Shown here: positions 5,155 through 38,786 of the stretch, piece after piece
Layout of the letters: each line of letters starts with the position of its first letter
Numbering within the stretch: position 1 is the first letter of the stretch
Translations under genes and position numbers: made by a program
From: Candidatus Moraniibacteriota bacterium
GTDB lineage: Bacteria > Patescibacteriota > Minisyncoccia > Moranbacterales > UBA1568
Reading direction: 5' to 3'
DNA length: 39,587 nucleotides
Assembly (NCBI GenBank): GCA_041908545.1
Contig: JAYRFE010000070.1
Location: 1-39,587, forward strand
The notes under the pieces: generated by a model
The model's database searches: none
Told to the model about the DNA's origin: nothing
The model's input: only the letters and a program-made list of their open reading frames with translations

Positions 5155-5361
5155 CAGTAAATCCAAAGGAGAGCGGCAAATGGGCCCAGAGTATCGGCGC
5201 CCGGAGACAAGGGACCTCACACTGATGACGGTTCCATGGGTCCGAGTCGGGAAAACGGCCTTCACGCCCCTTTCCCGACTCGCTTCCCGCATACGTTCTT
5301 TCTCTCTTTTTCTCCCTCCTACTTGCCCCCATCGCTTCGCGATTCAGGGGCCTTTTTATTT
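5155..5361 (+). ncRNA. Candidate ~200-nt structured transcript of unknown class, running from the orphan promoter to an intrinsic terminator
   Basis: Starts about 7 nt after the -10 element. It contains a 7-bp helix GGGCCCA (5182-5188)/TGGGTCC (5237-5243). It also has a perfect 12-bp hairpin CGAGTCGGGAAA-N16-TTTCCCGACTCG (5243-5282). A terminator GCCCC-c-ATCGC-TTC-GCGAT-tca-GGGGC followed by CTTTTTATTT lies at 5325-5361. No known RNA family was recognised by eye. Confidence 0.3.
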
Positions 5362-22811: not shown

Positions 22812-22838
22812 GCGTGCCACTTTTCTCAGCTGGCACGC
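22812..22838. terminator. Hairpin between the convergent rtcB and ligase-like genes (GCGTGCCA-N11-TGGCACGC)
   Basis: Perfect 8-bp stem beginning 6 nt after the rtcB stop and overlapping the stop codon of the minus-strand gene. No strong T-tract follows. Confidence 0.4.
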
Positions 22839-24253
22839 TTGAGATCCCGGGATGGTTTCATAGCATACCCGAATAAAAACGCGAAGAATAAGATCCCGAA
22901 ATGTGAAGTCCAGAGCCAGTGATCCCAGAAAAAACTCGGGAGAAGAGCGACGAGGCCAATGGATTGCGGACTGAAGAACAGAGATTTCGAAGACACAAAA
23001 GATACTACGGATCCGACAAACAAGGCGAGCCCGATCACACCGAGCTCCACCCAGATGAGAAGCAAGACATCGTGCGCCGGCTGGATTTCCCAGATCGGAC
23101 GACCAGGATTTTCTTTCATAAGTTGCGCCGTGAAATTCCCGGCTCCGACACCGATCAGCGGATATTTTCCGATAAGCATCCATGCGTCCCGAAACGCCGT
23201 GATCCGCTCAGATACCGACCCTTCCCGCTCGACTGTCACGGTATCGAATCTCGGAAAAATCTGCTCCCATAAGACAGATCCGAAAACGAATCCGGCCAAT
23301 CCAAGCATAAAAAAAACTTGCAGAAACCGCTTCCGAACTCTAAGTTGCCCCCCTCTCCAGACATGAAATCCCACCAGAGTGATTCCGAGTAGAATCCCAA
23401 GCCACGCCGTACGGGAAAACGTGAGAAGAAGACCAAGAAGAACGATGATGCTCCCTCCTTCGAAAAACAGCCGTTTCTTGATCGAAAGTGCCGATTGCGT
23501 AAGATACCCTATTCCCAAGACCAAAACGACACCAAGATACCCTCCGAGCATATTCGGATGCGGAAACGTACCGTATGCCCGTAGCCACCGACCAGATTCA
23601 TTCTTCAGCACCGATGTCCCGGCTTGCCAGGCTTCATGTCCACTCATCCCGAGCCACGACGAGACGAGCGTATTCTGCGAGAGAAATTGCCCGATACCGA
23701 TTACGCTCACGAGCACCGCTCCTGCGAAGAATGCTGTTGTGAGCAAGCCTGTTTCCCGTTTACCGAATGAACAGCTCAAAAGGAAGACCCCAGCCGCCAA
23801 AAGCAGCTTCACGAAAAAATATCCGGCCAACACCCGATCAGGTGCCCAGAGTATCGAAAGCCCGGCCCAGAAGATAAAGCCAGAAAACAAAGTACTCGAT
23901 TTTAAAAGAAAAGAGTCCAATGAATACTGGAACGTAAAAACAAACTTTTTCTTTGCTATTTGCTCGGAAGCAAAGGGCATCAGAAAAAGCTGTTTTTGCG
24001 TTCCAGTCAAACGCACCAACTGATGTTTTCGCCCCCTGGTACCCTGCCTTGACCGCCTACGCACAAAGTATCTCACTCCATACCACCCGAGTATCAACAC
24101 CAACAGAATATCCGTAGCATAGATACCAAGAGTCCCATACTGCCACTTCTCCCCGCCGATCATCGGCTCACGGAGGAAATACACCGTCTGAAACGGCAAC
24201 AAAAACATGAAAAGGGGAAAAGAAAAACGTGAGAATCGACCCATAATATACAA
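22826..24253 (-). CDS. O-antigen ligase/polymerase-like membrane protein (Wzy_C family) carrying an in-frame hairpin-repeat insertion
   Basis: At least 10 hydrophobic segments and the Wzy_C-type signature LLLTFSRTAWLGILLGITLV. The N-terminus LPFQTVYFLREPMIGGEKWQYGTLGIYATDILLVL is typical of these proteins. Codons for ...GTQKQLFLMPFASEQIAKKKFVFTFQ... are repeat copy a. Confidence 0.8.
   Translation of the reverse strand: MYIMGRFSRFSFPLFMFLLPFQTVYFLREPMIGGEKWQYGTLGIYATDILLVLILGWYGVRYFVRRRSRQGTRGRKHQLVRLTGTQKQLFLMPFASEQIAKKKFVFTFQYSLDSFLLKSSTLFSGFIFWAGLSILWAPDRVLAGYFFVKLLLAAGVFLLSCSFGKRETGLLTTAFFAGAVLVSVIGIGQFLSQNTLVSSWLGMSGHEAWQAGTSVLKNESGRWLRAYGTFPHPNMLGGYLGVVLVLGIGYLTQSALSIKKRLFFEGGSIIVLLGLLLTFSRTAWLGILLGITLVGFHVWRGGQLRVRKRFLQVFFMLGLAGFVFGSVLWEQIFPRFDTVTVEREGSVSERITAFRDAWMLIGKYPLIGVGAGNFTAQLMKENPGRPIWEIQPAHDVLLLIWVELGVIGLALFVGSVVSFVSSKSLFFSPQSIGLVALLPSFFWDHWLWTSHFGILFFAFLFGYAMKPSRDLKRAS
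23929..24004. repeat. Hairpin repeat copy a (core in orientation A on the plus strand), inside the ligase-like ORF
   Basis: ggaacgtaaaaacaaaCTTTTT-CTTTGCtaTTTGCTcggaAGCAAAgGGCATCAG-AAAAAGctgtttttgcgttcc. The arms pair with one T-G wobble and a small internal loop. Confidence 0.8.
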
Positions 24254-24264
24254 AAATTTCCAAC

Positions 24265-24852
24265 CTATAGGCTATCTCGTTGCCTGGTTAGCTCATCCTG
24301 AACCGATTTCCAAAAGGGCAAGAGGGCGGGAAAATTTGCCACTGCCTCATCAGCCCAGTGTAATAAAACAGGATAAATATCCTGACGCTCCCACTGCTTC
24401 ATGCCAAGATTATTGCGTTGGACGATAACTTCTATTTTATCCAAAGCCTTTGCGAATTTTGCCTCGATAGAAGACTGCTCTTCGTACTCCATCCACAACG
24501 CTTCCAATTCATTTCCAGTATTCCTAGGCAGGAGAGCGTATAATTCTTTGGCAGCTCGCAACTCTTTGGCATGTTGTTTTTGATGAGCATCACCATCGTG
24601 TTGATCCATGATCCACACATCACCAGCCACTGCCTCTACCAGATCATGCACGAGAATAATTTCAAGAGCTTTCAGTACATCAAGATCCACATCAAGTTCC
24701 CTAACAAAAATCAGCGCCATCAAAGCAACCCGCCAGCTATGCTCTGCCGGACTTTCTTTCCGTGAATTATCGCTGATAGACAATGCTCGCTGTATTGTTT
24801 TTAACTTCTCCGCCTTCTCTAAAAAAAGGAGTATTGCTCTCTCGTGTGCCAT
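24265..24852 (-). CDS. HD-domain hydrolase (YfbR-like 5'-deoxynucleotidase family)
   Basis: ESPAEHSWRVALMAL and ILVHDLVEAVAGD match the H...HD...D metal-binding pattern. The gene is visibly more AT-rich than its neighbours. Its stop lies 11 nt upstream of the ligase-like start. Confidence 0.75.
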   Translation of the reverse strand: MAHERAILLFLEKAEKLKTIQRALSISDNSRKESPAEHSWRVALMALIFVRELDVDLDVLKALEIILVHDLVEAVAGDVWIMDQHDGDAHQKQHAKELRAAKELYALLPRNTGNELEALWMEYEEQSSIEAKFAKALDKIEVIVQRNNLGMKQWERQDIYPVLLHWADEAVANFPALLPFWKSVQDELTRQRDSL

Positions 24853-24984
24853 AAAAATGAGTTCACAAAATGATTCCTTTCCGTAAGAGTAGCACTTTTT
24901 GATACTCTCACGCGATATATACTACTTTTCTCGACACAAATGAAAACGAAACGGCAGGATACAGAAACGATTTCACGAGAGGGC

Positions 24985-25060
24985 GAGGGGCGAGGGCGGC
25001 TTTTTCTGATGCCCTTTGATTCCGAGCAAACAGCAAGGAAAAAGATCGTCCTCGCCCCTC
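24985..25060. repeat. Hairpin repeat copy b (core in orientation B on the plus strand)
   Basis: gaggggcgagggcggcTTTTT-CTGATGCCcTTTGATtccgAGCAAAcaGCAAGG-AAAAAGatcgtcctcgcccctc. The arms pair with two G-T wobbles and a 1-nt bulge. Confidence 0.8.
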
Positions 25061-25079
25061 GGTACCCTGCCTTAACCGC

Positions 25080-25268
25080 CTACGCACTAAAGTATCTCAC
25101 ACCATACCACCCGAGTATCAACACCAACAAAATATCCGTGACATAGATGCCAAGAGTCCCATACTGCCACTTCTCCCCGCCGATCATCGGTTCACGGAGC
25201 AAATACACCGTCTGCAGCGGCAAGAGGAAGAAAAAAAGAAGCAGTATGTTTCTCCACCACATGCACAT
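25080..25268 (-). pseudogene. Truncated duplicate of the N-terminus of the O-antigen-ligase-like gene
   Basis: The fragment sequence LPLQTVYLLREPMIGGEKWQYGTLGIYVTDILLVLILGWYGVRYF matches the full gene's LPFQTVYFLREPMIGGEKWQYGTLGIYATDILLVLILGWYGVRYF. A 1-nt indel right after RYF causes a stop at 25080, and only about 62 codons remain. Confidence 0.7.
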
Positions 25269-25272
25269 GTCG

Positions 25273-25734
25273 TCATGCCTCCCCGGTTGTCGTGCCACCT
25301 GGATCGCCGAAGAAATCCCACAACATATACACCCCCTCCTCTTCTGTTTCGATACGCAACATCAAAACGGCGGTTATTTCTTTCAGGCCACTCAAATAAG
25401 ATTCTTTTCGTTCCGCTATCGATTCCGGTGTCTGATATTCATCGAAGAAACACAGCACTTGCGCTTCGATATCCTTCATCTTAGCAATAAATCCGACTGT
25501 CTTTTCCTGTTGTTCTTTCGAGACAGCCCTCTGAATCATCCCGGATACTATTTTCGGATAAAAAAAATCGTTTTCAAGCTTCAGATGACCTGCCAACTTC
25601 TTCAAAAAAGAAACTTGCAGATCAATGACACCGGCATATTCGGTCGCCAAGACGGCCTGGCGCTGAATTTCCCCGATCAATCTTCGAAGTTCCCTGTGTT
25701 GAGCGATAAGCACGCTGACCATATCTTCACCCAT
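25273..25734 (-). CDS. Hemerythrin-like (HHE cation-binding) domain protein
   Basis: All-helical ~150-aa protein with H-x3-E-type spacing (AQHRELRRLIGEI, AGHLKLENDFFYPKI, IETEEEGVY). The start is taken at MGEDMVSVL. The assignment rests on pattern only. Confidence 0.5.
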   Translation of the reverse strand: MGEDMVSVLIAQHRELRRLIGEIQRQAVLATEYAGVIDLQVSFLKKLAGHLKLENDFFYPKIVSGMIQRAVSKEQQEKTVGFIAKMKDIEAQVLCFFDEYQTPESIAERKESYLSGLKEITAVLMLRIETEEEGVYMLWDFFGDPGGTTTGEA

Positions 25735-26010
25735 AAGGCAGAATACCGAAAAACTTAAATGTCCGCTCTCCGATTCATTATACCAGAAACAAGCCCCGAA
25801 AGATATCCACCGCAAAAAAACAGACGGTCGCGCCGTTTTATTTCTCCCCGACGATTATCGGATCATACACCGTCCGTAGCGGTGTAGGAAGGAAAAAGGA
25901 CAAAAACGGACAAACTACGAAGCGTTTCATGTGCATACGAAATATTTCAAACCATGCCTAAAAAATCGCCTCTCATTGCCGAGGATAGCACTTTTTGATA
26001 CTCTCAGTCT

Positions 26011-26643
26011 ATGAAATACATCACCTTTTCCGGCGTAGATGGGAGCGGCAAGTCTACTCAACTCGAACTTCTGAGGGAATACCTCATCGGTAAAGGTTTT
26101 AAGGTCGCCTATTTTCACGCAATCGAATTCTCTTTCGCCAATCGGATCGCCCGACGATTCAAAAACATCAAGAACTTCCAACCCGGTCAGGAGAAAGCCG
26201 TCACCAAAACCTCTCTTCTCACGCTTCTTCTCCGCCAAAAACTCCTCTTCCTCGATCTGTTCCGCTTCCGACGGTTCCTCAGCCGACTGGAACGCGAAGG
26301 ATACGACTACGTCCTCTCCGACCGCTCCTTTTTCGACAGCCTCATCCATCTGGAATACCTCGCCCTCCCGCACCGAAAAATACTCCCCTTTCTCCTGTGG
26401 CGCACTCGAAGCGACTTACTTGAATCCTTTCTACCGAAACCGGATATCGCCTTCTATCTCGATCTCGACCCGAAAATCATCATGTCCCGAGAACGCACAC
26501 CTGAACAAGGCATCGAATACCTACACAAAAAACAATCCCTCTTCCGAACGAAAATGAACTCCTGGAATATGCACCTGCTCGCCGCCGATCGGCCGAAAGA
26601 ACTCGTTTTCGACTCACTACTCACCGTACTTCGTGAACGCTGA
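26011..26643 (+). CDS. Thymidylate-kinase-like P-loop kinase
   Basis: N-terminus MKYITFSGVDGSGKSTQLELLREYL (Tmk-type GxDGxGKST P-loop) and a DRSFFDSL motif in the position of Tmk DRY. It lacks the usual TREPGGT segment, so the substrate is uncertain. Confidence 0.6.
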   Translation: MKYITFSGVDGSGKSTQLELLREYLIGKGFKVAYFHAIEFSFANRIARRFKNIKNFQPGQEKAVTKTSLLTLLLRQKLLFLDLFRFRRFLSRLEREGYDYVLSDRSFFDSLIHLEYLALPHRKILPFLLWRTRSDLLESFLPKPDIAFYLDLDPKIIMSRERTPEQGIEYLHKKQSLFRTKMNSWNMHLLAADRPKELVFDSLLTVLRER

Positions 26644-26838
26644 CACAAGACGGAAACCAACGGAAATATCCGGTTCGAGATCCCCCCGATTTCCGTTTCC
26701 GTCCTATCCCAGCCGGAGTCTTGACAGTCCGACTGGATTCCGATACCCTTTCCTGGTAGAGAGAGTTCTTTTTTATTTATCAAATTTCGCACCCTCGAGA
26801 AATGTGTTTTTCATTTCCAAATGAAGAACGTGATTCTC

Positions 26839-27116
26839 GGGGACGCGGAGACGTTAACCGAACGACTGGCACATCACTGCGTCGCAAGGTGGCATCGGTT
26901 CTGGAGCTCGAACCGGCCAACTACGAAAAAACATGATGATGTATCGCCACTGACGAATGAGGAAGTGAAATGATGCTTCATACTTGGTCGAAAACCGCCC
27001 TCTACCCTCCTTGGGCAGGGATTCGACGCGCACCCTTCCGGGCATTCTCGTGAGCAATCTCAGAGCAAGCGCCACAACGACTTCATGGGAACCATCATTT
27101 CTCCGCGTCCCCACCA
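26839..27116 (+). ncRNA. Unassigned structured locus, either an RNA of unknown class or a MITE-like element. A 12-bp terminal helix closes ~250 nt, and the 3' end reads ...CCCC-ACCA.
   Basis: GGGGACGCGGAG (26839-26850) is the exact reverse complement of CTCCGCGTCCCC (27101-27112). This is followed by ACCA and then a hairpin plus T5 (27124-27155). Inside are GGATTCGAC (27019-27027), a hairpin CGGTTC-N8-GAACCG, and GCC AAC TAC GAA AAA ACA TGA TGA (26916-26939). There is no credible ORF on either strand. Confidence 0.35.
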
Positions 27117-27123
27117 TCCTCCC

Positions 27124-27155
27124 GACTAGACGCCAACGTGCGACTAGTCTTTTTC
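27124..27155 (+). terminator. Candidate intrinsic terminator after the structured locus
   Basis: GACTAG-acgccaacgtgcga-CTAGTC followed by TTTTTCTTTTCC. The stem is modest (6 bp, plus an internal 3-bp ACG/CGT). Confidence 0.45.
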
Positions 27156-27264
27156 TTTTCCTCAAGGAAAAAGTTATACTACATTACAAGCGTTGATTTT
27201 ACCATCTCTCCTCTGCCGAAATCATCCTCCCGCGGATTCCGAAATAACGAAATAAGCCATCCTC

Positions 27265-28734
27265 ATGAAAAAATTCTCACAAGCACTTGCCTGGCTCACC
27301 GTTTCCGAAATCATCTTCAATATCGCCGGCTACGTCATCCAATCGGCCGTCGGCCGCATTCTCGGTCCGGCCGATTATGGCCGCTACAGTCTCATCGTGA
27401 CTCTCACGACCATGGTCATCATCCTGATCGGCAACGGAATCCCGACCGCCATGTCGAAGTACCTGGCCGAAATCTTCGAAAGCGCCCCCGAAAAAATACT
27501 CGGCATCAAACGCCAGGCCATACGATTACAGATCCTGCTCATGTCTTCCGTCACGGTCCTCTTCTTTCTCGCCGCACCGCTTCTCGCGCACCTCCTTCAC
27601 GACCCGAGCCTCACTCCGCTCTTCCGTCTTTCCTCCCTCATCATCCCCGCCTTCGCCGCCGCATCCTTCTACTTTTACTACTATACCGGACTGCATTTCT
27701 TCCGCCTCCAAGCGGGACTTAAGATGATGCGCGCACTTGGACGCATCGTCTTCATCATCAGCTTCGCCTACTTCTTCGGTGTCCAAGGCGCCGTATCGGG
27801 CTATATCGCCGCACCACTCTTCATCTTCACTCTCGGCCTCCTGGCTGACATCTTCATCACCCATCGCTACTTTCCGCACGTCAAACAACCGAAAACCGAA
27901 GTCATCGCCTTCTCCGGAAAAACCATACTCACCTACGCCGGACCACTCACACTCTTCCTGCTTTTCTACGAATTCATCCTCACTCTTGATCTCTACTTCG
28001 TCAAAAGCCTTCTTCGAAGCGACTACCTCACCGGTATCTACAACGCCGCTCTCACGGCCGGACGCATCCCTTATTACCTCTTCTACGCCCTCACCATCAT
28101 CCTCCTTCCCGCTATTTCCAAGACGACTGCCGCACGCGACACGAAAGAGACGGAGAATCTCGTCAATAAATCGCTCCGCCTGTTGATATTTCTCCTTTTC
28201 CCCATGGTCACCCTCCTCATGATATACGCTCCCCAAGTGCTTCATCTCTTCTACGGAAACCAATACGCTGCCGCCGAACGACCACTCCAGGTCTATGCGC
28301 TCGGAGTCGGATTCCTTACTGTTTTTTACGTTCTCTCTTTCGCGCTCAATGGTGCCGGACTCGTCAAGATTCCCATGAAGCTGGCCTTCTTCGGATTTCT
28401 CGGCATGATCGGACTCAATTTCCTCCTCATCCCGAAATGGTCGCTCATCGGAGCCGCGCTCTCCACTACGCTCGTCTCCATCGCAGTCGCCATCGCCATC
28501 CTCATCGCCGTAGAGCGGCACTTCCGAGTCCGACTGGCCCCAAAAACCCTCTTCATCTCCCTTGGAAGCGTCATCGTTCTCATATTCGGTTCATACATAC
28601 TCCCGAGCGGTCCATATGGCTTCCTCGTTTCGGGAACACTGCTCACCTGTCTCTATTTCACCCTTCTCCGTTTCTCGGGCGAACTGACCGATACCGATAT
28701 CGCCCCACTCACCCGGCTCTTCAAGAAAAAATAA
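27265..28734 (+). CDS. Polysaccharide/oligosaccharide flippase (MOP/Wzx-type polysaccharide biosynthesis protein)
   Basis: 489 aa with about 12-14 TM segments. The N-terminus LTVSEIIFNIAGYVIQSAVGRILGPADYGRYSLIVTL is typical of Wzx/polysacc_synt proteins. Confidence 0.75.
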   Translation: MKKFSQALAWLTVSEIIFNIAGYVIQSAVGRILGPADYGRYSLIVTLTTMVIILIGNGIPTAMSKYLAEIFESAPEKILGIKRQAIRLQILLMSSVTVLFFLAAPLLAHLLHDPSLTPLFRLSSLIIPAFAAASFYFYYYTGLHFFRLQAGLKMMRALGRIVFIISFAYFFGVQGAVSGYIAAPLFIFTLGLLADIFITHRYFPHVKQPKTEVIAFSGKTILTYAGPLTLFLLFYEFILTLDLYFVKSLLRSDYLTGIYNAALTAGRIPYYLFYALTIILLPAISKTTAARDTKETENLVNKSLRLLIFLLFPMVTLLMIYAPQVLHLFYGNQYAAAERPLQVYALGVGFLTVFYVLSFALNGAGLVKIPMKLAFFGFLGMIGLNFLLIPKWSLIGAALSTTLVSIAVAIAILIAVERHFRVRLAPKTLFISLGSVIVLIFGSYILPSGPYGFLVSGTLLTCLYFTLLRFSGELTDTDIAPLTRLFKKK

Positions 28735-28842
28735 AACCACGCAGAGTACACCCCGATTCTCCCGTGTCCACCCATACGCCAAACGAAAATCGGATCACAC
28801 ATGATATCGTGGATCCGATTTTCATCCGAGTTTCTCGCTTTC

Positions 28843-30372
28843 TTATCGTCCGAAACGATAAACGTCGATCGGTCCACGGACGGACGGATTACTTATCCGT
28901 TCCATCCGTTGTTTCATGTACGTTTCCGCCTCATTCGAGAAATAGTCATAGTCATTGTCCGAAAGAACGACCCAGCCGCTCTCGTGTTCCTTTACGATTC
29001 TCTCAAGAGCATCGAGTGAAAGCTTTTCCCGATTCACCTCGTCCCCAAGATCGTACACCGGGAGGTCGGTCCCGCTCCAGTAATAATTCCTCATATTCCG
29101 CGTAACCAGGACATCCGTCGGCAGCCGGTTCTTCTTCACGTATTCGAAAACCTTCCGATAATTCGGATTCCCTCCCGAAGACGTCTCATGATACGTATTG
29201 TTTTCCGCCAAAAAGTACCCGAAATTCGGCACAAGCAGAAAAAGACCGGAGAGGATGATCAACGAGGTCTTTCGACTCCACCGGGGATAATGTTCCAGAA
29301 GCGACTGCCACAGACCGAATATCCCGACCGCTGTCAGGATCAATCCGAACGACTGAGAGAAAAAGATATACTGCGGTCCCGCATTCCGTCGAAAAAACCA
29401 GATCGCACACACGAGCGGTATGATAAAAGAAAAAACAAGGTATCCGGCCGCTTTCGGTCGTCGTTCTCGTACCGCCAGGCTATACACTCCGAAACCCATG
29501 AGTCCGAGAGCGAACAGCGGATGGGCATAATCTTCCATCACGTATCCGAGATAGCTATAGTGATCATCGAACCAGATGAGGCCTGCCGAAAAGGAAGAAA
29601 AAAGGCCTGTCGCCGCGATACGGAGCGCTGCCAAAGCGGATATTCCGAGACCGAGCAATGAAAAATACCGATTCCGGAAATTCCCGGTCTCCCGATACCG
29701 TGTCATGCCAGCCCACAAGAGATACGCCGCCAGCGAAAAGACGATTGTCGCTGTCAGCTGATGAATCGAAAGCCCGATGACGAGCAGGATTCCGGACAGG
29801 AGAGCATACCCGACATGAATCCCTGTTCGCTCCCAGAATTTCCGGAATAGACGCCAGCGCGTCGAAACAGTCTGTTCAAGACAAAGGAAGAGAGTCGTCG
29901 CGAGAGCAAGATACACCGGAGCGAACATCGCGTACATCCGTAACCGGCGATCGAACACTATTTCCGAAACCGAAAGCGCGGCGAGAAACGTCGCCACGAG
30001 AGCGATCTCGCGTCGTTTCGTCAGCACCCAAGCGCTCCAGAAAACCGTGAGCAACGTGACGCCACCCCAAAAGACACTCACCGATCGGGCGACCGCCTCA
30101 GTCGGAGGGAGAAATCGGAACAACTGGGCCACCTGCCATTTATAGATATTCGCCCGCTCATCGCGCGCCGCATTCGCATTCACGGTACTCGGCTTCTGAT
30201 GATTAAAATCCCAAGCCTTCCATTCCCCGGTCTTGAAGTATCCATACGCGGAATTCATATCGAGAAACTCATCCGCCACGAACGAGTTGTTTCCCAAGCC
30301 ATACGCCCGAATCCCTACCCCGAGACAAAGAATGCATCCGAGAGTCAGAAATGTCCGTTTCCAAGAAACCAT
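28843..30372 (-). CDS. Membrane glycosyltransferase, GT39/PMT_2 (ArnT-like) family
   Basis: The N-terminus GVGIRAYGLGNNSFVADEFLDMNSAYGY is a DE-type first loop after TM1. It is followed by about 10 TM segments and a soluble C-terminal domain. Confidence 0.7.
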   Translation of the reverse strand: MVSWKRTFLTLGCILCLGVGIRAYGLGNNSFVADEFLDMNSAYGYFKTGEWKAWDFNHQKPSTVNANAARDERANIYKWQVAQLFRFLPPTEAVARSVSVFWGGVTLLTVFWSAWVLTKRREIALVATFLAALSVSEIVFDRRLRMYAMFAPVYLALATTLFLCLEQTVSTRWRLFRKFWERTGIHVGYALLSGILLVIGLSIHQLTATIVFSLAAYLLWAGMTRYRETGNFRNRYFSLLGLGISALAALRIAATGLFSSFSAGLIWFDDHYSYLGYVMEDYAHPLFALGLMGFGVYSLAVRERRPKAAGYLVFSFIIPLVCAIWFFRRNAGPQYIFFSQSFGLILTAVGIFGLWQSLLEHYPRWSRKTSLIILSGLFLLVPNFGYFLAENNTYHETSSGGNPNYRKVFEYVKKNRLPTDVLVTRNMRNYYWSGTDLPVYDLGDEVNREKLSLDALERIVKEHESGWVVLSDNDYDYFSNEAETYMKQRMERISNPSVRGPIDVYRFGR

Positions 30373-30458
30373 ATATTTGAAAAAAATTATCGATTCAAAC
30401 CCACAAACCCCGTTCCTCCGAAAAACTCCTCCCTTTCGAGTATCGCAAACACTGGAAG

Positions 30459-32339: not shown

Positions 32340-33082
32340 ATCGCTCCCATAACCGGACCAGGAGAAGAACTTGGACGAAAGGGTCTTGACCGCAGATCAC
32401 GCGCGAAGCGCCGATTGACAACATCCGGAGAAGCGAGTTGCACCGGTCGAAACGACTGCCGATGGAGCGGACAGGCTCCGTATCTCCGCAAAGCATCCAG
32501 ATGCTCTTTCGTACCATAGCCCTTATGCCGGATGAACCCGTACACCGGATACTCCCGATCGAGAGCATCCATCATCCGATCACGCGTCACCTTGGCGATG
32601 ATAGAGGCCGCCGCGATAGACTTGGAAATACCGTCGCCGCCGATGAGCATTTCCTGTTTACCCGAAAAATTCGGCAACAGCTGATTGCCATCGATCAGAA
32701 AATGAGCTTGTTGCATATCACCGGCCGAAACAACCCGTTTCAAATCCGATATAGCCGCCTTCATCGCGAGAAAAGTCGCCTCAAGAATATTCACCCGATC
32801 GATCGTCTCGGCCGAAATGATGCCAATCCCAATAGCGAAGTGTTCCCCTATCACTGAAAATACCCGCTCCCGTTGTTTCTCGGACAATTTCTTTGAATCC
32901 CGCATCAAAGCAAACACGTTCTCTTGCGAAGCAGGAATAACGAAACTCAGATCGCGATACGCCACCGCAGCGGCCACGACCGGCCCGGCCAAGGGACCGC
33001 GACCGACCTCATCCACCCCGATCACGAAGCGGCTCCCACCGACCGATCTCTCTATTTCCATCTCAAAAGTCGTCTGTTGCAT
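32336..33082 (-). CDS. rnhB: Ribonuclease HII with a ~40-aa basic, Pro/Ser-rich C-terminal tail
   Basis: IGVDEVGRGPLAGPVVAAAV, DSKKLSEKQRE, FLIDGN, AASIIAKVTRD, GYGT. Start candidates are at 33112, 33082 and 33061. Confidence 0.9.
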   Translation of the reverse strand: MQQTTFEMEIERSVGGSRFVIGVDEVGRGPLAGPVVAAAVAYRDLSFVIPASQENVFALMRDSKKLSEKQRERVFSVIGEHFAIGIGIISAETIDRVNILEATFLAMKAAISDLKRVVSAGDMQQAHFLIDGNQLLPNFSGKQEMLIGGDGISKSIAAASIIAKVTRDRMMDALDREYPVYGFIRHKGYGTKEHLDALRRYGACPLHRQSFRPVQLASPDVVNRRFARDLRSRPFRPSSSPGPVMGAI

Positions 33083-33128
33083 GCATATAGTATAACGTAT
33101 CCGCAAAGCCAATGACCACCTGAAACGG

Positions 33129-33153
33129 CTGATAGCGGTTCAACCGCTATCAG
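33129..33153. repeat. Palindrome CTGATAGCGGTT-C-AACCGCTATCAG, copy 1 of the AGCGGTT..AACCGCT motif
   Basis: Perfect 12-bp arms, nested within CACCTGA...TCAGGTG (33117-33156), just upstream of rnhB on the minus strand. Confidence 0.7.
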
Positions 33154-33444
33154 GTGAGGGTTCCCTTTTTCCCTCAACCTGCTATACTTGGCTTACCATA
33201 AGCTTCTCTGCAAACCCCATGGAGCGATCCGGGCACTGAGAGAATCCACCGTCATGTCCAACCTCGAATATCCAGTTTCGAATTTTCTTTCGCTCCTTTC
33301 GGCGCGATTTTTTGTTGGAAATGGATGTCTTAAGAAGATTCAAAATTAGATTTTCGATACTCCATGCATATGGAACATCGGAAAGAACCACCTGTATCCC
33401 TCTTCACGGTATCCATAAATCACAAATCCGATATCTGATTTCAC

Positions 33445-36400
33445 ATGAACTTCACCCATCTCCACGTCCACTCGCACTATACTCTCTTGACCGCACTCGG
33501 CCGGCCGGAAGAACTTTTGGCGCATGCCAAGGAACTCGGACAGACCGCGCTCGCCCACACCGACACCTCCGCTCTCTACGGAGCGGTTGAATTCTACACC
33601 AAGGCCAAGGACTACGGGATCAAAGCGATCATCGGAGCCGAAATGTACGTCTGCCACGATCTCCACAGTAAAAACAATACCGCCGAAGACCGACGGCGTC
33701 ATACCATCGTCCTCCTCGTCAAAAACGAAACCGGCTACAAGAATCTCCTCAAGATCATTTCGATCGCCCAACTCGAAGGCTTCTACTACAAAGCCCGGAC
33801 TGATAAAGCTCTCCTCCGCCAGTATAGTGAAGGACTGATCGCACTTTCCGGATCGCTCCAGGGTGAAGTACCCTCCGAGCTCATCTATGGCGACTACGAT
33901 CGTGCCAAACTCGCCGCTCTCGAATATCAGGATATCTTCGGGGCTGGCAACTTCTACCTTGAAATCCAGCCGCATTTCAATCATGAAACTCACGCCACGG
34001 TCAATCAAGGACTGATCGCACTCTCGCGCGAGACGAGTATCCCTCTCGTTGCCGCGAATGACGTACACTATGTCCGCCGCGAAGACGCCGCTATCCAAGA
34101 CACGCTCCTCTGTATCCGGGACAATAAACGTGTCGACGACCGTGACCGCTTCTCGATGATGTCCCTCGATCTCTCACTCAAAAGCTCCGAGGAAATGATT
34201 GAAACCTTCAAAGATTTCCCGGATGCCATCGAGAATACCCAAAAAATCGTCAATGCCTGCCACTTCTCCTTTACCTTCGGTGTCAATCACCTGCCTGAAT
34301 ATCCGCTCCCGGAAGGTGTCACACCGGACGGATATCTACGCCAGCTCTGCGAAACGGGACTCAAGGAGCGCTTCGGTGATACCCCGACGACGGAAGAACA
34401 ACTCACCCGTCTCAACTACGAACTCGACATCATCGGCAAGACCGGCTTTGCGTCGTACTTCTTGATCGTCCAGGACTTCGTCAACTGGGCGAAAGACAAC
34501 GGGGTCGTGGTCGGTCCGGGTCGTGGTTCAGCCGCCGGCTCCTTCGTCGCCTACCTGACCGGTATCACCAACCTCGACCCGATCCAGTACGATCTCCTCT
34601 TCGAACGCTTCCTCAATCCGGAACGTATCTCCATGCCCGATGTCGATATGGACTTCGCCGATGATCACCGCGAAGACGTCCTGAACTACGTCCGCGAACG
34701 CTTCGGAGCCGACCATGTCGCACAGATCATCACCTTCGGAACCATGGCCGCCCGCGGTTCGATCCGCGATGTCGGACGTGCGCTCGGCATACCGCTTTCT
34801 CTTTGCGACCAGACCGCCAAAATGATTCCGATGTTCACTTCCATCAGAAAAGCCCTGGAAGAAGTCCCGGAATTCAAGACGCATTACGAAAGTAATGCCG
34901 AGGTCCGCCGCCTCGTTGACAACGCCCAGAAAATCGAAGGATTGGCCCGGCATGCCTCGATGCATGCCTGCGGCGTCGTCATCACCAAGGACCCGGTCAC
35001 CGAATACACCCCCCTCCAGCGTATTTCCGGTTCACGCGAAGGCGTCGTCACCCAATATGCCGCCTCAACCAAGAACAACGCGGTCGAAAAAATCGGCCTC
35101 CTCAAGATGGACTTTCTCGGTCTCAAAAACCTCACCATCATCCAGAACACCCTCCGTATCGTCCGGGCACTCGGCAAGTTCGAAGCACTGGCGCATACAC
35201 TCGGACTCAACCCGGATACCGCTTCCGTTACCGATGTGCTGGACAAACTACCGATCGATGATGTAGGAGCCTATCGGGTGCTCCAGGAAGCCCGAACGAC
35301 CGGCGTCTTCCAGCTCGAATCGACCGGCATGAAACGCTATCTGAAACAGCTGAAACCGACGGTCTTCGAAGACATCATCGCCATGGTCGCGCTCTATCGT
35401 CCGGGACCGATGGAATATATCCCCGACTTCATCGGCGGCAAACACGGCACCAAGCAGATCGAATATCTCCACCCGAAACTCGAACCGATTCTGAAGAACA
35501 CCTACGGCGTCGCCGTCTATCAGGAACAGCTCATGCAGATCGCTCGGGATCTTGCCGGTTTCTCACTCGGTGAGGCCGACGTGCTCCGCAAAGCCGTCGG
35601 AAAGAAAATCAAGGAACTCGTCGCGGAACAACGCATCAAATTCATCGAGGGCTGTGTCAAGCACGACATCACCAAACACGTCGCCGAACAGGTTTTTGCC
35701 TTCATCGAACCGTTTGCCGGTTACGGTTTCAACCGGTCCCATGCCGCCTGCTACGCGATGATCGGTTATCAGACCGCCTATCTCAAGGCTCACTATCCGG
35801 CCGAATTCATGGCCGCGCTCCTCACGAGCGATCAAAACGATACTGACCGCATCGCCATCGAAGTACGCGAGGCACGTGAAATCGGCTTGAGCGTTCTCCA
35901 ACCGGACATCAATGAAAGTTTCGAAAGCTTCGCGGTCATCCGGGGAGACGACGATATCGAGCGTATCCGCTTCGGTCTTCAGGCGATCAAGAATGTCGGT
36001 TCGGTCTGTGCGGAAGAGATCGTCAAGGAACGGAAGCGCGGCGGGAAATTCAAAAGTCTCGAAGACTTCGTCGAACGCGTCCAGACCAAGGATCTGAATA
36101 AAAAATCCATCGAAGCGCTCGCCAAGGTCGGCGCCCTCGACACCCTGGGCGAACGCGAGCAGATCCTCGAAAGCATCGATGCCATCATCCGCTACGGTAA
36201 GCAAGCCTCCACTCTGGCCGAGACACATACCGATAGCCTCTTCGGCTCCATGCCGCTTCCCAAGACCAAGATCAATCTCGCGCGAGCTATCCCGGCATCG
36301 AAACAGCAGCGCCTGGCCTGGGAAAAGGAGCTCCTCGGACTCTATGTCACCGGACATCCGGCCTCCGATTATCGGCATTACCTCAAAGAAACTACCACCC

Positions 36401-36975
36401 CACTCACCGATCTCGAAAAACAGGAGAATGACACCCGGATCCGCATCGGCGGTATCGTGACTTCCTCAAGACGAATGATCACTAAAAACGGACATCCGAT
36501 GTTCTTTATCGGTCTCGAGGATCTTACCGGCCGGACCGAAATCCTCGTCTTCGGCAAGACGGCGGAGCAAACCGACGGCTTTTGGAAAGAAGATGATATC
36601 GTACTCATCGATGCCCGCGTCTCTCACAAGGACGGCCAGCTCCGCTGTATCGCCGAAAGCGCCGAACGCCTTTCTCCCGATACCCTGACGCAGTTCGAGC
36701 GCGTGCGCGTCACCCGTGAGAAATCTGTGTCGGAAAAGGCACGGGCAAATGAGAACACCCTGACAGCTCCGAAACTCCTGATTACACTCGAAGAACAGGC
36801 TGATGCCGGACTCATCGGTAAACTCTCGGCCTTTCTCCGAACCGTACCGAAAGGAGAAACGAAAATCCTCGTCAAGATACACGGCACGACCATCGATACG
36901 CCCTTCTACATAAATCCCGAAGAAACGACCCTCGAACAGATACGTGCGCTCCAAGGTGTTGAATCAGTCGGATAA
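33445..36975 (+). CDS. dnaE: DNA polymerase III alpha subunit
   Basis: PHP N-terminus MNFTHLHVHSHYTLL, then GVVVGPGRGSAAGSFVAYLTGIT, ISMPDVDMDF, LLKMDFLGLKNLT, a C-terminal OB-fold region, 1176 aa. Confidence 0.97.
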   Translation: MNFTHLHVHSHYTLLTALGRPEELLAHAKELGQTALAHTDTSALYGAVEFYTKAKDYGIKAIIGAEMYVCHDLHSKNNTAEDRRRHTIVLLVKNETGYKNLLKIISIAQLEGFYYKARTDKALLRQYSEGLIALSGSLQGEVPSELIYGDYDRAKLAALEYQDIFGAGNFYLEIQPHFNHETHATVNQGLIALSRETSIPLVAANDVHYVRREDAAIQDTLLCIRDNKRVDDRDRFSMMSLDLSLKSSEEMIETFKDFPDAIENTQKIVNACHFSFTFGVNHLPEYPLPEGVTPDGYLRQLCETGLKERFGDTPTTEEQLTRLNYELDIIGKTGFASYFLIVQDFVNWAKDNGVVVGPGRGSAAGSFVAYLTGITNLDPIQYDLLFERFLNPERISMPDVDMDFADDHREDVLNYVRERFGADHVAQIITFGTMAARGSIRDVGRALGIPLSLCDQTAKMIPMFTSIRKALEEVPEFKTHYESNAEVRRLVDNAQKIEGLARHASMHACGVVITKDPVTEYTPLQRISGSREGVVTQYAASTKNNAVEKIGLLKMDFLGLKNLTIIQNTLRIVRALGKFEALAHTLGLNPDTASVTDVLDKLPIDDVGAYRVLQEARTTGVFQLESTGMKRYLKQLKPTVFEDIIAMVALYRPGPMEYIPDFIGGKHGTKQIEYLHPKLEPILKNTYGVAVYQEQLMQIARDLAGFSLGEADVLRKAVGKKIKELVAEQRIKFIEGCVKHDITKHVAEQVFAFIEPFAGYGFNRSHAACYAMIGYQTAYLKAHYPAEFMAALLTSDQNDTDRIAIEVREAREIGLSVLQPDINESFESFAVIRGDDDIERIRFGLQAIKNVGSVCAEEIVKERKRGGKFKSLEDFVERVQTKDLNKKSIEALAKVGALDTLGEREQILESIDAIIRYGKQASTLAETHTDSLFGSMPLPKTKINLARAIPASKQQRLAWEKELLGLYVTGHPASDYRHYLKETTTPLTDLEKQENDTRIRIGGIVTSSRRMITKNGHPMFFIGLEDLTGRTEILVFGKTAEQTDGFWKEDDIVLIDARVSHKDGQLRCIAESAERLSPDTLTQFERVRVTREKSVSEKARANENTLTAPKLLITLEEQADAGLIGKLSAFLRTVPKGETKILVKIHGTTIDTPFYINPEETTLEQIRALQGVESVG

Positions 36976-37009
36976 CATATTTTTAAAAGTTCCTTGTACA
37001 GTCTCTATA

Positions 37010-37088
37010 CGGAAGGCACTCTCTTACTTTTTCCTTGCTGCGTATTCGGAAATACGGGGCATCAGAAAAAGCAAGAGAGTACCTTCCG
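37010..37088. repeat. Hairpin repeat copy c (orientation A)
   Basis: cggaaggcactctcttaCTTTTT-CCTTGCtgCGTATTcggaAATACGgGGCATCAG-AAAAAGcaagagagtaccttccg. The arms are 23 nt with two C-A mismatches, which would be G-U pairs on the opposite strand. Confidence 0.85.
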
Positions 37089-37157
37089 CTTCATCGGGAA
37101 TATATTTCTACACTCCATCATTCGTACACTTTAAGGCAGAAGGTTTCTCAAGTATGG

Positions 37158-37233
37158 AGGGAGTGAGACTTCTCTTTTTTTGATGCCGGTGTTTCTGAAC
37201 ACGTCGCAAGAAAAAAGAGAAACCTCACTCCCT
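37158..37233. repeat. Hairpin repeat copy d (orientation B)
   Basis: agggagtgagacttctCTTTTTT-TGATGCCgGTGTTtctgAACACgtcGCAAG-AAAAAAGagaaacctcactccct. The arms have two adjacent mismatches. Confidence 0.85.
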
Positions 37234-37357
37234 TAGTATCTATCTCAAATCTCATAGGAAAAGCATTTCTAAAAAAATCATACTCCTTTTACTGACCTGA
37301 TGCATCAGTAAAGAGCGCTCTTTATGTTCACTTCAGGATGTGGTAAGGTATCCTTTC

Positions 37358-37398
37358 CCTTACAACGTGTTCAGAAAAATACGAGGCGCCAAAAAAGC
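37358..37398. repeat. Degenerate hairpin repeat core, copy e (orientation A)
   Basis: ccttacaacgtgttcagaaaaatacgaggcgccaaaaaagc compared with the family core ccttgcgacgtgttcggaaacaccggcatcagaaaaaag. The flanks (about 37325-37415) are only loosely self-complementary. Confidence 0.5.
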
Positions 37399-37478
37399 AA
37401 CTAGAAGGAACATTCTGTATCAAAAACAGCGCATTACTGCACGATACTATGGGATACGATAGGTGTCCGAAACGTGAA

Positions 37479-37554
37479 GGAAGGATAATTGCTCTTTTTT
37501 CTGATGCTGGTGTTTCTGAACACGTCGCAAGGAAAAAAGAGCGATTATCCTTCC
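37479..37554. repeat. Hairpin repeat copy f (orientation B)
   Basis: ggaaggataattgctCTTTTTT-CTGATGCTgGTGTTtctgAACACgtcGCAAGG-AAAAAAGagcgattatccttcc. The arms are 22 nt, with 21 Watson-Crick pairs and one G-T. Confidence 0.9.
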
Positions 37555-37599
37555 CTACTCTACGACATAGAAAACATTTTTAAAAAAACTCATCTTATT

Positions 37600-38529
37600 A
37601 TGGAATTACCCCCTCACAAACTGATCGTCATCGCCGGGCCGACCGCTTCCGGCAAGTCAGACCTAGCCATCGAGCTGGCGCATCGGCTGAACGGCGAAAT
37701 CATCTCGGCCGATAGCCGCCAGGTGTACAGCGGCATGAATATCGGCACTGGTAAGGTGCTCCGGGATTCGGAATCGGCGGCAGATGATGAATATATCTCC
37801 GGCGGCATCCGCCACCACCTCATCGATATCGCCAAACCGAACGAAGCGTACAATATCTCGGATTTCCTCCAGGATGCCAATCACGCACTCACCGGTATCC
37901 GCGCTCGCGGCAAGCGACCTCTCGTCTGCGGCGGCACGCATTTCTGGATCCAAGCACTCCTCGAAGGAACGAGTTTTCCGGCTGTTCCGCCCGATCCGGT
38001 CCTGCGGGACCACCTCAGCACCAAGACCACCGATGAGCTCTACACTCTGCTCAAAGCACAGGATCCGACCAGAGCCGCGACTATCGACCGGCAGAATCCA
38101 CTCCGCCTCATCCGCGCTCTCGAAATCGTCGCCGCTCTCGGCACAGTCCCCTCGATCACCCGACACGAACCATCAACCGCCGAAAACCACCCCACGATTC
38201 TCGTTCTCAATCCCCCGAAAGAAGTCCTCCGCGAGCGCATCAGGACGCGGCTTCTTAACCGATTCGCATCCGGCATGGTCGAAGAAGTCGAAAGGCTTCA
38301 CGGACAAGGAATCGATTGGGAGCGCCTTGAGAGCTTCGGCCTCGAATACCGATTCATAGCGGAATTCCTCCAAGGTAAACGAGATGAAACGTCCCTGCAA
38401 GCCGACCTCGAGCACGCCATCTGGCACTACGCCCGTCGACAGCTCTCCTGGCTCCGCCGCTGGGAACACCAGGGAACGACCCTTACCTGGATATCGGATC
38501 CCAAAGAAGCGATGAACCTCCCCTTCTAA
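37600..38529 (+). CDS. miaA: tRNA dimethylallyltransferase
   Basis: MELPPHKLIVIAGPTASGKSDLAIELA and ISADSRQVYSGMNIGTGK. The start is taken at ATG 37600, because the ORF-track start at 37489 lies inside repeat copy f. Confidence 0.93.
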   Translation: MELPPHKLIVIAGPTASGKSDLAIELAHRLNGEIISADSRQVYSGMNIGTGKVLRDSESAADDEYISGGIRHHLIDIAKPNEAYNISDFLQDANHALTGIRARGKRPLVCGGTHFWIQALLEGTSFPAVPPDPVLRDHLSTKTTDELYTLLKAQDPTRAATIDRQNPLRLIRALEIVAALGTVPSITRHEPSTAENHPTILVLNPPKEVLRERIRTRLLNRFASGMVEEVERLHGQGIDWERLESFGLEYRFIAEFLQGKRDETSLQADLEHAIWHYARRQLSWLRRWEHQGTTLTWISDPKEAMNLPF

Positions 38530-38585
38530 AGCTCCTGCTACCCATATCGATCCAAAAAAAGAGCACTCATCATCCCAACAAAAAA

Positions 38586-38665
38586 GGGGAGGGTGCTTTT
38601 GGCTTTTTTCCTTGCGACGTGTTCGGAAACACCGGCATCAGAAAAAAGCCAAAAGCACCCTCCCC
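38586..38665. repeat. Hairpin repeat copy g (orientation A), the best-preserved copy
   Basis: GGGGAGGGTGCTTTTGGCTTTTTT-CCTTGCgacGTGTTcggaAACACcGGCATCAG-AAAAAAGCCAAAAGCACCCTCCCC. The arms are 24/24 perfect Watson-Crick pairs. Confidence 0.9.
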
Positions 38666-38716: not shown

Positions 38717-38736
38717 ATAGCGGTTTCAACCGCTGT
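38717..38736. repeat. AGCGGTT..AACCGCT palindrome, copy 2
   Basis: ATAGCGGTT-TC-AACCGCTGT, nested within GGTCTA...TAGACC (38710-38745). Confidence 0.6.
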
Positions 38737-38766
38737 CTACTAGACCGACACGTTTTAAGCCATTTT

Positions 38767-38786
38767 GTAGCGGTTGAACCGCTATC
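38767..38786. repeat. AGCGGTT..AACCGCT palindrome, copy 3
   Basis: GTAGCGGTT-G-AACCGCTATC, nested within CCGACA...TGTCGG. It lies 15 nt downstream of the LamG-gene stop on the minus strand. Confidence 0.6.

Follow-up and report, generated by a model that had tools for sequence, protein, structure and literature searches.

A previously undescribed hairpin repeat of about 80 bases in a small clade of Moranbacteria-like bacteria

The window analysed here, the whole 39,587-nt contig JAYRFE010000070.1 (GCA_041908545.1) of Candidatus Moraniibacteriota bacterium, is an ordinary chromosomal stretch of a bacterium of the candidate phyla radiation (CPR), and it carries several copies of one hairpin of about 80 bases. 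This hairpin is a previously undescribed repeat that has been found only in a small clade of Moranbacteria-like CPR bacteria; in the literature on CPR repeats, we found no description of an interspersed repeat family or of this repeat. In each copy, a shared centre of ~44 nt is flanked by copy-specific complementary arms of ~18 nt, and the pairing of these arms has been maintained by compensating substitutions. We propose, with about even confidence, that the copies form a lineage-specific repeat family resembling repetitive extragenic palindromic (REP) elements, in a small Moranbacteria-related CPR clade, in which the folded single strand is constrained and the apical module is probably read by a protein. 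On our best reading, the unit of this family is the whole ~80-nt hairpin and not the centre alone.

Fold and covariation of the repeat

The shared centre reads CTTTTT-(C/T)(C/T)TTGC-NN, followed by a mini-stem of 5-6 bp with a CRGA loop and then by N-GCATCAG-AAAAAG. We call the strand or sense on which the core reads CTTTTT...TTGC...GCATCAG-AAAAAG A, and the opposite strand B. Both strands have the same predicted fold (z = -8 to -11), in which a stem of 22-27 bp, with CTTTTT/AAAAAG as its inner six pairs, leads through a 2x3 internal loop to an invariant TGC:GCA helix of 3 bp and then, through a second small internal loop, to the 5-6 bp mini-stem, which is closed by an invariant T-A pair and capped by the CRGA tetraloop. 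The core occurs as type 1 (CCTTGC-GA-CGTGTT-CRGA-AACAC-C-AGCATCAG) or type 2 (CTTTGC-TG-NNNNTT-CGGA-AANNNN-G-GGCATCAG), and a third, more divergent type exists. Copies measure 76-82 nt in the window and about 74-95 nt across the family; the near-constant length given in a preliminary description of this DNA thus holds for the window but not for the family.

Alignment A2 comprises 55 distinct copies from the window and about 12 related genomes. In this alignment, 85.5% of the pair cells are paired, compared with 62.8 ± 0.7% when the 3′ partners were shuffled (0/500 shuffles), and the covariation score is 0.58 compared with 0.18 after shuffling (again 0/500). As a second control, the partner was slid by 1-3 columns, on which pairing fell to 46-54%. 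Compensated changes occur in 27 of the 33 structure pairs; RNAalifold recovered the same structure independently, with compensated changes in 23 of its 28 pairs. Five pairs of the mini-stem covary (CG/UA, GC/AU/UA, UA/CG/GC, GC/AU and UA/CG), and the TGC:GCA helix and the loop-closing U-A pair show no variation across the alignment. The combination of a conserved centre with pairing, copy-specific arms, first noticed in the window and complete in its copy g, extends to the family. The three mini-stem versions noticed with it, all of which preserve pairing, were confirmed, and more were found elsewhere (CATGTT/AACATG, CACGTT/AACGTG, TACGTT/AACGTA, TACGCT/AGCGTA and TGTGTT/AACACA).

Because paralogous copies are related to one another, comparisons between orthologues provide the stronger evidence for covariation. 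Between copy d of the window and its orthologue in L147 (L-numbers are labels of the related-genome loci compared with the window), double changes turn A-T to T-A and T-A to G-C, transversions included. Between genomes, a copy adjoining a conserved 244-aa gene shows changes from T-A to C-G and from T-A to G-C. In the copy that lies within an O-antigen-ligase-like gene, ACG...TTC (Thr...Phe) of the window corresponds to GCG...CTC (Ala...Leu) in L141, and the pair is kept. Together with the covarying mini-stem, these compensated substitutions sustain the earlier claim that the folded form is under constraint. An apparent 'compensated 2-nt indel' between the copies d of the window and L147 was discarded, as an ungapped alignment accounts for it by compensated substitutions.

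Entropy is 1.4-2.0 bits in the outer-stem columns and 0-1 bit in the centre. To say that the arms differ completely between copies, as had been done, was nevertheless too strong: columns 6-8 of the 5′ arm are 85-95% purine, a positional purine/pyrimidine pattern runs along the stem, and copies d (GGAAGG(G)TGATTT... in L147, L074, L148 and L149), g (GGGGAGGGTGCTTTTGG) and e (GGAAGGATAATTGCTC) have arms that are recognisably related. The purine-rich 5′ arm says nothing about orientation, since a hairpin that has one on one strand necessarily has one on the other. The arm pattern is what would be expected from compensation through G.U intermediates (G-C, G.U, A-U) after whole-hairpin duplication and drift. 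Separately, strain differences, for the most part changes from G to A, fall in clusters on the purine-rich 5′ arm (four in copy g, at window 38586-38603, of L126/L137, and several between L003 and L138); these clusters look like hypermutation of one arm in one direction rather than random drift.

Inheritance, recombination and placement

A pattern scan of one genome per species returned mostly chance matches; true copies, recognised by long complementary arms together with the TTCGGAAA mini-stem loop, were present, among the matches listed, only in at least about 12 related CPR assemblies, which are titled 'Patescibacteria group', 'Moraniibacteriota' or 'Bdellovibrionales' (the last probably mislabelled). 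A stricter scan of a metagenome collection yielded 23 contigs, and a scan of a viral contig collection found no copy. Searched with a home-built covariance model (CM), R1, loci that had been chosen for holding a copy, 293 kb in all, yielded about 75 distinct copies. Further copies were found in syntenic loci reached by protein look-ups, and in two loci that were fetched through their ligase or MiaA protein the density is 2 copies per 18 kb (L141) and 2 copies per 21 kb (L148).

The copies are old and have mostly been inherited vertically at the same chromosomal sites. The interval between dnaE and miaA holds 1-5 copies in every examined genome of the clade (MiaA 66-100% identical) except L141, in which the block is deleted. 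From the window through L147, L074, L148 and L149, copy d retains related arms and the same core orientation, and orthologous sites keep their core type (1 or 2) from lineage to lineage.

Local duplication produces new copies, and recombination between centres deletes or scrambles copies. L149 carries copy d three times in tandem, and L027 has a partial tandem copy. A deletion between d and e in L137 has left a chimera of d arm, core and e arm; in L145, a c arm and an e arm flank a decayed core that scores 36 bits; and copy f of the window is a comparable chimera, common to L051. In L141, ~300 bp have been lost and the left arm of d is joined to the right arm of the next copy. In the three chimeras whose arms do not pair, the cores score 13, 36 and 51 bits, compared with 71-93 bits for intact copies; in these three, where the arms have stopped pairing, the centre has decayed or is beginning to. 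Strains may also have exchanged DNA at this cluster: window 36940-37240 and L143 2500-2800 are nearly identical from the end of dnaE through copy c and the spacer to copy d, with a single difference in the 67 nt of the spacer, whereas the products of the adjacent miaA are only 77% identical, a mosaic suggesting that diverged strains underwent homologous exchange with a breakpoint among these elements.

The copies are biased in position. Of 131 tandem spacers, 26 contain elements, as do 8 of 35 convergent and 1 of 32 divergent ones. Typically, 8-60 nt separate a stop codon from the first copy, with 49 nt or more remaining to the following start codon; the adjacent genes are housekeeping genes. 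When each core is compared with the closest gene upstream of it, 14 are in the A sense and 16 in the B sense. The test of position and orientation that the preliminary description had proposed thus gave a bias to gene 3′ ends and no bias in orientation. Orthologous copies with homologous arms can even have opposite cores (L019 and L078 versus L083 and L102), with the mismatched inner arm segment flipping along, and opposite core orientations are also carried by the two paralogues of the ligase gene, termed a-type and b-type. Such flips are rare: none was seen among close strains, and copy d has a single orientation clade-wide.

On the A strand, transition mismatches over all stem positions comprise 86 A.C and 34 G.T, and among the clusters of related copies that show an excess, 21 have it for A.C and 7 for G.T (p = 0.0125). 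In columns 4-19 only, the counts are 32 A.C and 19 G.T; the signal is weaker there because part of the overall excess comes from one subfamily, in which an inner position is a fixed C.A. The mismatches therefore barely pick a strand, as had been noticed from the window copies. Strand B is predicted to be the more stable RNA in 51 of 69 copies. Mismatches and predicted stability together suggest a weak lean towards strand B rather than a decision, and a structured RNA gene encoded on one strand appears unlikely. We also surveyed possible partner genes using Pfam, covering all large open reading frames (ORFs) of the window and 148 ORFs neighbouring copies, for which the 25 most frequent families were listed. 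Transposase, HUH, Nop and integrase families were absent from the window results and from these 25 families, and the search for a co-occurring gene, also proposed at the outset, turned up none that recurs in the window or in the 148 ORFs.

Copy a encodes 27 aa in the loop between transmembrane segments 2 and 3 (TM2-TM3) of the O-antigen-ligase-like protein. The insertion is present in homologues with 52% identity or more and takes two forms, each the translation of one core orientation: the a-type reads ...TGTQKQ-LFLMPFASEQIAKKK-FVFTFQ... and the b-type ...FEGRKRS-FSLLFARKQRASEK-AVFAPRS.... In homologues at 50% identity or less, the whole segment is absent. The b-type gene is intact, with the element in frame, in L128 and for proteins P0007, P0011 and P0015. 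In the window, the 'segmental duplication' that had been described beside copy b is the N-terminal part (25055-25225) of a b-type pseudogene, which matches 24035-24200 with about 94% identity by alignment count. The ligase genes of the window and L141 are 62.5% identical overall and 89-93% identical across the element, which is the maximum for the gene; the arms, unique to the ligase copy, are also well conserved. As the element is the best conserved DNA in the gene, the constraint lies on the nucleic acid and not on a particular peptide.

These observations bear on an explanation by neutral palindromes, in which the copies would be selfish or junk repeats whose arms are kept by hairpin-templated repair or template switching and whose centres are kept by gene conversion. 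Both kinds of transition mismatch do occur, without a clear strand, the core is flipped between some orthologues, and recombination between centres is frequent, all of which such a process could produce. It would likewise account for centre variants shared within a genome (CCGGCATC in d and g of the window, CCAGCATC in both of L051; GCATCGG in e′, g′ and f′ of L051 versus GCATCAG in e and g of the window) and for the symmetric relic CTGATGCATCAG at 37297-37308. However, chimeras with non-complementary arms (f and L145) decay and are not re-homogenised, the stable core type at orthologous sites indicates that centres are not freely overwritten, and the asymmetric internal loops have remained asymmetric in about 70 copies. 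The placement bias to gene 3′ ends and the well-conserved arms of the ligase copy also speak against neutrality, and we consider this explanation unlikely, although it retains some weight.

Copies and other features of the window

The window encodes dprA, topA, groEL, an ABC transporter, a 2444-aa Kelch/fn3 protein, ychF, rtcB, the O-antigen-ligase-like gene, rnhB, dnaE and miaA. The closest protein relatives of its genes carry Moranbacteria/Moraniibacteriota annotation, and five tRNAs are the sole Rfam matches above threshold. Copies of the repeat were detected concordantly by a fuzzy motif scan, an inverted-repeat scan and the CM (Table 1). A CM built from the family, as the preliminary description had recommended, recovers six intact window copies at 71-89 bits (E 1e-15 to 1e-19) and a decayed seventh at 13 bits, as well as further copies in related loci. 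The six intact copies are also the strongest inverted repeats of the window, and the exact core pattern has 3 matches compared with 0.01 expected. The family is therefore real in the window, but what had been taken as seven equal copies are six intact copies and one remnant.

Table 1. Copies of the hairpin repeat and related sequences in the window
Feature	Coordinates	Strand	Description
Copy a	23926..24007	+	Type-2 core CTTTTTCTTTGC..GGCATCAGAAAAAG on + strand; CM 80.7 bits; in frame within O-antigen-ligase-like ORF 22826-24244 (-), 27 aa added (TGTQKQLFLMPFASEQIAKKKFVFTFQ)
Copy b	24984..25061	-	A-sense core on - strand; CM 71.2 bits; inside truncated remnant of the second, 'b-type' ligase paralogue
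b-type ligase pseudogene fragment	24900..25270	-	Broken frames; compared with L127 and L128
Solo arm GTCTTAAGAAGATTCAAAATTA	33327..33348	+	Inside weak CM match 33262-33359 (21.9 bits); same place upstream of dnaE holds an intact element in L141 and L074 (five-way alignment of the RNase HII-dnaE spacer)
Copy c	37010..37088	+	Type-2 core; 35 nt 3′ of dnaE stop codon; CM 88.9 bits; orthologues in L051, L137 and L143
Copy d	37158..37233	-	Type-1 core; CM 80.7 bits; oldest traceable copy; orthologues with related arms GGAAGG(G)TGATTT... in L143, L147, L074, L148 and L149
Relic palindromes between d and f	37297..37323	.	Probable element debris, read directly from sequence: CTGATGCATCAG (37297-37308), two core right ends in a symmetric head-to-head join; AAAGAGCGCTCTTT, inner-arm sequence without core
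Copy f	~37335..37410	+	Decayed chimera; CM 13.1 bits; left arm and left half-core are those of the f′ element (intact in L051 and L143); right half type-2-like with non-complementary arm (alignment with L051, comparison with L143 and L147)
Copy e	37479..37554	-	Type-1 core; 45 nt 5′ of miaA start codon; CM 80.1 bits
Copy g	38586..38665	+	Type-1 core; perfect 25-bp stem, arms 100% complementary; CM 88.6 bits; convergent spacer, about 57 nt 3′ of miaA stop codon; orthologues in L051, L126, L137, L142 and L143

The solo arm is relevant to the idea that only the 44-nt centre is mobile and inserts into the loops of existing 3′ hairpins, or into a site whose flank then receives an inverted copy, with the arms being local sequence. 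Copies in L101, L125 and L132 do resemble terminators of the form A-run/stem/T-run with the centre in the loop, solo-arm sites exist at window 33327-33348 and in the dnaE-miaA spacer of L141, and copy b has a right arm that is homologous to coding sequence of the ligase paralogue. In contrast, the 'empty' site of L141 is a deletion, as copy d is ancestral to both lineages, and the close relative L051 has element fragments at the solo-arm site. The arms moreover share the purine/pyrimidine pattern and the homology among d, e and g that are expected from duplication of whole hairpins, and the window contains few long hairpins without a centre. A mobile centre is therefore very improbable. Its variant in which one arm is the flank and the other an inverted copy had looked promising when L141 was compared with L074 and copy b with the ligase paralogue, and from the solo arm upstream of dnaE. 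It is not supported, given the ancestral copy d, the deletion in L141 and the debris in L051, yet it could hold for other copies.

Core-less long hairpins lie at 5243-5282 and 330-362; one has 17-nt arms with a purine-rich 5′ arm, and the other has the form A-run/stem/T-run and lies just after a tRNA cluster. They resemble the arms of some members of the family, for example AAAATCCC...GGGATTTT in L101, L125 and L132. The elements also affect gene calls: the long miaA ORF of the window (37489-38529) is over-extended at its 5′ end and starts at a TTG at 37489 inside copy e, the likely true start being an ATG at 37600, and in L148 (10001-11194) MiaA is called at 397 aa with a start inside a hairpin element.

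Three further features of the window were noted. A second small palindromic repeat, ATAGCGGTT(C/G)AACCGCTAT, occurs at 33132-33150 and 38767-38785, with a variant at 38718-38737, so that up to 3 mismatches give 2 matches where 0.01 are expected, and a third copy is looser; the pair around 38.7 kb lies in nested inverted repeats (GGTCTA...TAGACC) between copy g and a Laminin_G gene. A noncoding block at ~33185-33310 in the divergent RNase HII-dnaE spacer (TAAGCTTCTCTGCAAACCCCATGGAGCGATCCGGGCRCTGAGAGAA...TTTCGCTCCTTTCGGYGCGATTTTTTGTTG) is conserved in L141, L074, L051 and partly in the distant L148, although its surroundings cannot be aligned. It contains an CTTCTCTG/CTGAGAGAA stem and has no Rfam match at threshold (the best, Methylobacterium-1, scores 25.5 bits against a gathering threshold of 40), and it may serve as a small RNA or as a leader upstream of dnaE. 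Finally, a 509-aa ORF at 28843-30372 (-) has no Pfam match; its counterparts have 511 aa in L141 and 515 aa in L148, and its synteny is conserved, adjoining rnhB and the PMT-like and Polysacc_synt genes.

Comparison with known families and interpretation

REP/BIME/REPIN elements are the closest known systems in behaviour, being multi-copy chromosomal hairpins that occur at gene 3′ ends and in convergent spacers, in either orientation and often clustered, are inherited vertically and serve as recombination substrates; for REP/BIME and the present family alike, a trans-acting protein encoded elsewhere is expected. The placement known from REPs recurs here, with copies that are extragenic, enriched at 3′ ends, in both orientations and in clusters of 1-5 between dnaE and miaA. 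REPs are 20-40 nt long and have a conserved stem sequence and a 5′ GTAG/CGTC tag, and the gene for their Y1 HUH transposase, RAYT (REP-associated tyrosine transposase), is usually flanked by REPs. The present copies, in contrast, are 74-95 nt long, with ~44 conserved apical nucleotides and a free outer stem; no RAYT was found in the window, and the 25 families most often found in the 148 neighbouring ORFs include no transposase. By size, conserved part and tag, REP/BIME/REPIN fails as a family assignment, and we regard the repeat as a kind of interspersed palindromic repeat in a group for which none was found described. The preliminary description had set the element apart from ordinary REP families and from miniature transposable elements with inverted repeats (MITEs). 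This contrast was overdrawn, as dispersal, 3′ placement, either orientation, duplication, recombination and in-frame insertion are all REP- or MITE-like.

The copies within ligase genes recall Rickettsia palindromic elements (RPEs) and MITEs in coding genes (for example, the QMITEs of Coxiella), in which a palindrome is likewise in frame, is translated as an extra surface or loop segment and is retained for long. RPEs are conserved from end to end and exceed the present copies in length. In this family, both centre orientations are translated in paralogues, and the outer ends are not conserved as they are in MITEs; the likeness is one of behaviour only.

Another possibility is a structured RNA acting in cis or in trans with a dedicated protein, either as guide units like those of the tandem interspaced guide RNA (TIGR)-Tas systems or as RNase III processing hairpins like those of phage T7. 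The stem-loop tigRNAs of CPR bacteria have a variable palindromic terminal stem, conservation near the loop and a 5-bp hairpin between single-stranded segments, and they occur at flexible genomic positions and in frame within coding sequence (PMC12045711; bioRxiv 10.64898/2026.09.09.750476). The present family matches them in overall shape, in tolerance inside coding sequence and in host group. The TIGR unit, for which we adopted the published criteria, is defined by two intervals of box C (CNA/CUU), a spacer of 8-10 nt and box D (TG/CG), with a stem of at least 5 bp (bioRxiv 10.64898/2026.09.09.750476). None of the 55 copies has two intervals of box C, 9 nt and box D on either strand, even when a 22-nt loop is allowed. 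TIGR spacers should differ between units, whereas the single-stranded segments of this family, at 8-10 nt, are constant: the linker columns 27-34 and 51-59 have 0-1.0 bit and fall into two or three fixed subtypes. The copies are dispersed and not arrayed, an adjacent tas gene and a strand preference are lacking, and neither the window nor the families listed for the 148 neighbouring ORFs include a Nop-domain (tas) protein.

With the RNase III hairpins of phage T7, the copies share intergenic positions after genes and stems roughly two helical turns long with internal loops that are conserved, and by analogy they could leave a protective 3′ hairpin. A stem of 22-27 bp suits RNase III, and the lean towards strand B, on which the excess mismatches are of the G.U type, points in the same direction. 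However, T7 sites are transcribed one way, whereas the centre here lies at random with respect to transcription, and the strand signal shrinks once the fixed C.A is excluded. We regard a structured RNA as quite improbable. Of the two alternatives raised at first, a structured RNA or a protein-recognised DNA, the former has thus become unlikely as a gene on one strand, and the latter is still a possible reading as a folded DNA, with no partner found.

Other known structures were considered and set aside. No family of Rfam 15 (hammerhead, twister, pistol and hatchet included) matched the element at the gathering threshold, and the E-value mode returned only sub-threshold matches of the miRNA-precursor type, as a long hairpin of any kind would give. 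The strand-B stretch CUGAUG...GAAA had suggested a hammerhead or box C/D K-turn, but on inspection A9 and stem I are missing and tandem G.A pairs cannot be fitted; the bulge-helix-bulge and the T-loop also failed on inspection; a promoter of the form TTGCGA-17-GCATCA has a poor -10 match. Integron attC sites, with R/L boxes at the outer ends, a variable centre, cassettes and an integrase, have the reverse conservation, and the neighbours here are housekeeping genes. The initial statement that the core matches no known motif is consistent with the lack of an Rfam family and of a described repeat in the literature.

Under the REP-like explanation that we favour, the element would act as a folded single strand, either as RNA at transcript 3′ ends or as hairpin or cruciform DNA, which would explain why the arms are complementary and compensating while otherwise free in sequence. 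The freedom of the arms may be limited by the purine-5′/pyrimidine-3′ pattern, which would be kept by compensation of the transition type. The apical module of ~30 nt (the TGC:GCA helix, the two internal loops, the mini-stem and the tetraloop) would be the sequence-specific part and could be read by a putative trans-acting protein, either an enzyme that resembles RAYT and causes the spread of the element, or a factor of the host. By analogy with REPs, the likeliest effect in the cell would be that a stable hairpin after a gene shapes or protects the transcript 3′ end and forms a recombination hotspot. In this scheme, spread beyond local duplication, the trans-acting protein and the cellular effect are steps that we infer. 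Two readings most easily combine orientation independence with arm pairing. In one, the element would be read as DNA, in which both forms are always available, whether in a cruciform or on either strand after replication; in the other, the stem would be all that matters at the level of RNA, with the apical module serving spread or maintenance.

Several observations weigh against this REP-like explanation. The conservation of the centre and the freedom of the outer arms are the reverse of the classical REP/MITE pattern, and no GTAG/CGTC tag was seen in A2, where sequences like GGRRGG or AAATCCC make up the 5′ ends. We found no case of a clean recent insertion matched by an empty site; every polarisable difference in presence or absence is a deletion, and mobility is therefore something we infer rather than observe. 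Flanking direct repeats, inspected by eye as target-site duplications at copies c, d, e and g, are not consistent at c, e and g, and d has a possible AGTAT. No trans-acting partner protein was found in the window or in the 148 neighbouring ORFs, and the argument from the decay of unpaired centres is based on three chimeras. A T-run does not follow the hairpin at a, b, c, d or e and is present at g on the - strand only, so that the copies do not qualify as canonical intrinsic terminators; A-run/T-run flanks do occur in a few copies from Moraniibacteriota (L101, L125 and L132), and canonical terminator-like sites are not enriched in this DNA (29 compared with 24 ± 4.6 expected). In addition, we found no parent insertion sequence for the element, and a noisy motif scan for half-cores separated by a gene, a sign of an autonomous parent, gave nothing convincing.

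A further reading, which we hold to be decidedly unlikely, is that the hairpins are maintained by the host and read in their folded form by a dedicated protein, with the constant apex as a handle and a stem that is locus-specific in sequence but matters only as structure. This would amount to a new nucleic-acid/protein system of CPR bacteria, for example a guide-less relative of box C/D-like (TIGR/Nop) ribonucleoproteins or a measuring 3′-end processing signal of the RNase III type.

In summary, the genomes of CPR/Patescibacteria are small and compact, and this family takes a sizeable share of the spacers near housekeeping genes such as dnaE and miaA, where it drives strain-level deletions and chimeras. 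In the ligase gene, the element has become a translated part of a membrane protein. The covariance model can be used to annotate the elements and to flag the over-extended or interrupted ORF calls that they cause. As a constant apex is combined with a compensating stem even inside a coding gene, the family offers a natural system for separating structural selection from palindrome homogenisation, and its pattern of conservation points to a factor that recognises folded nucleic acid.

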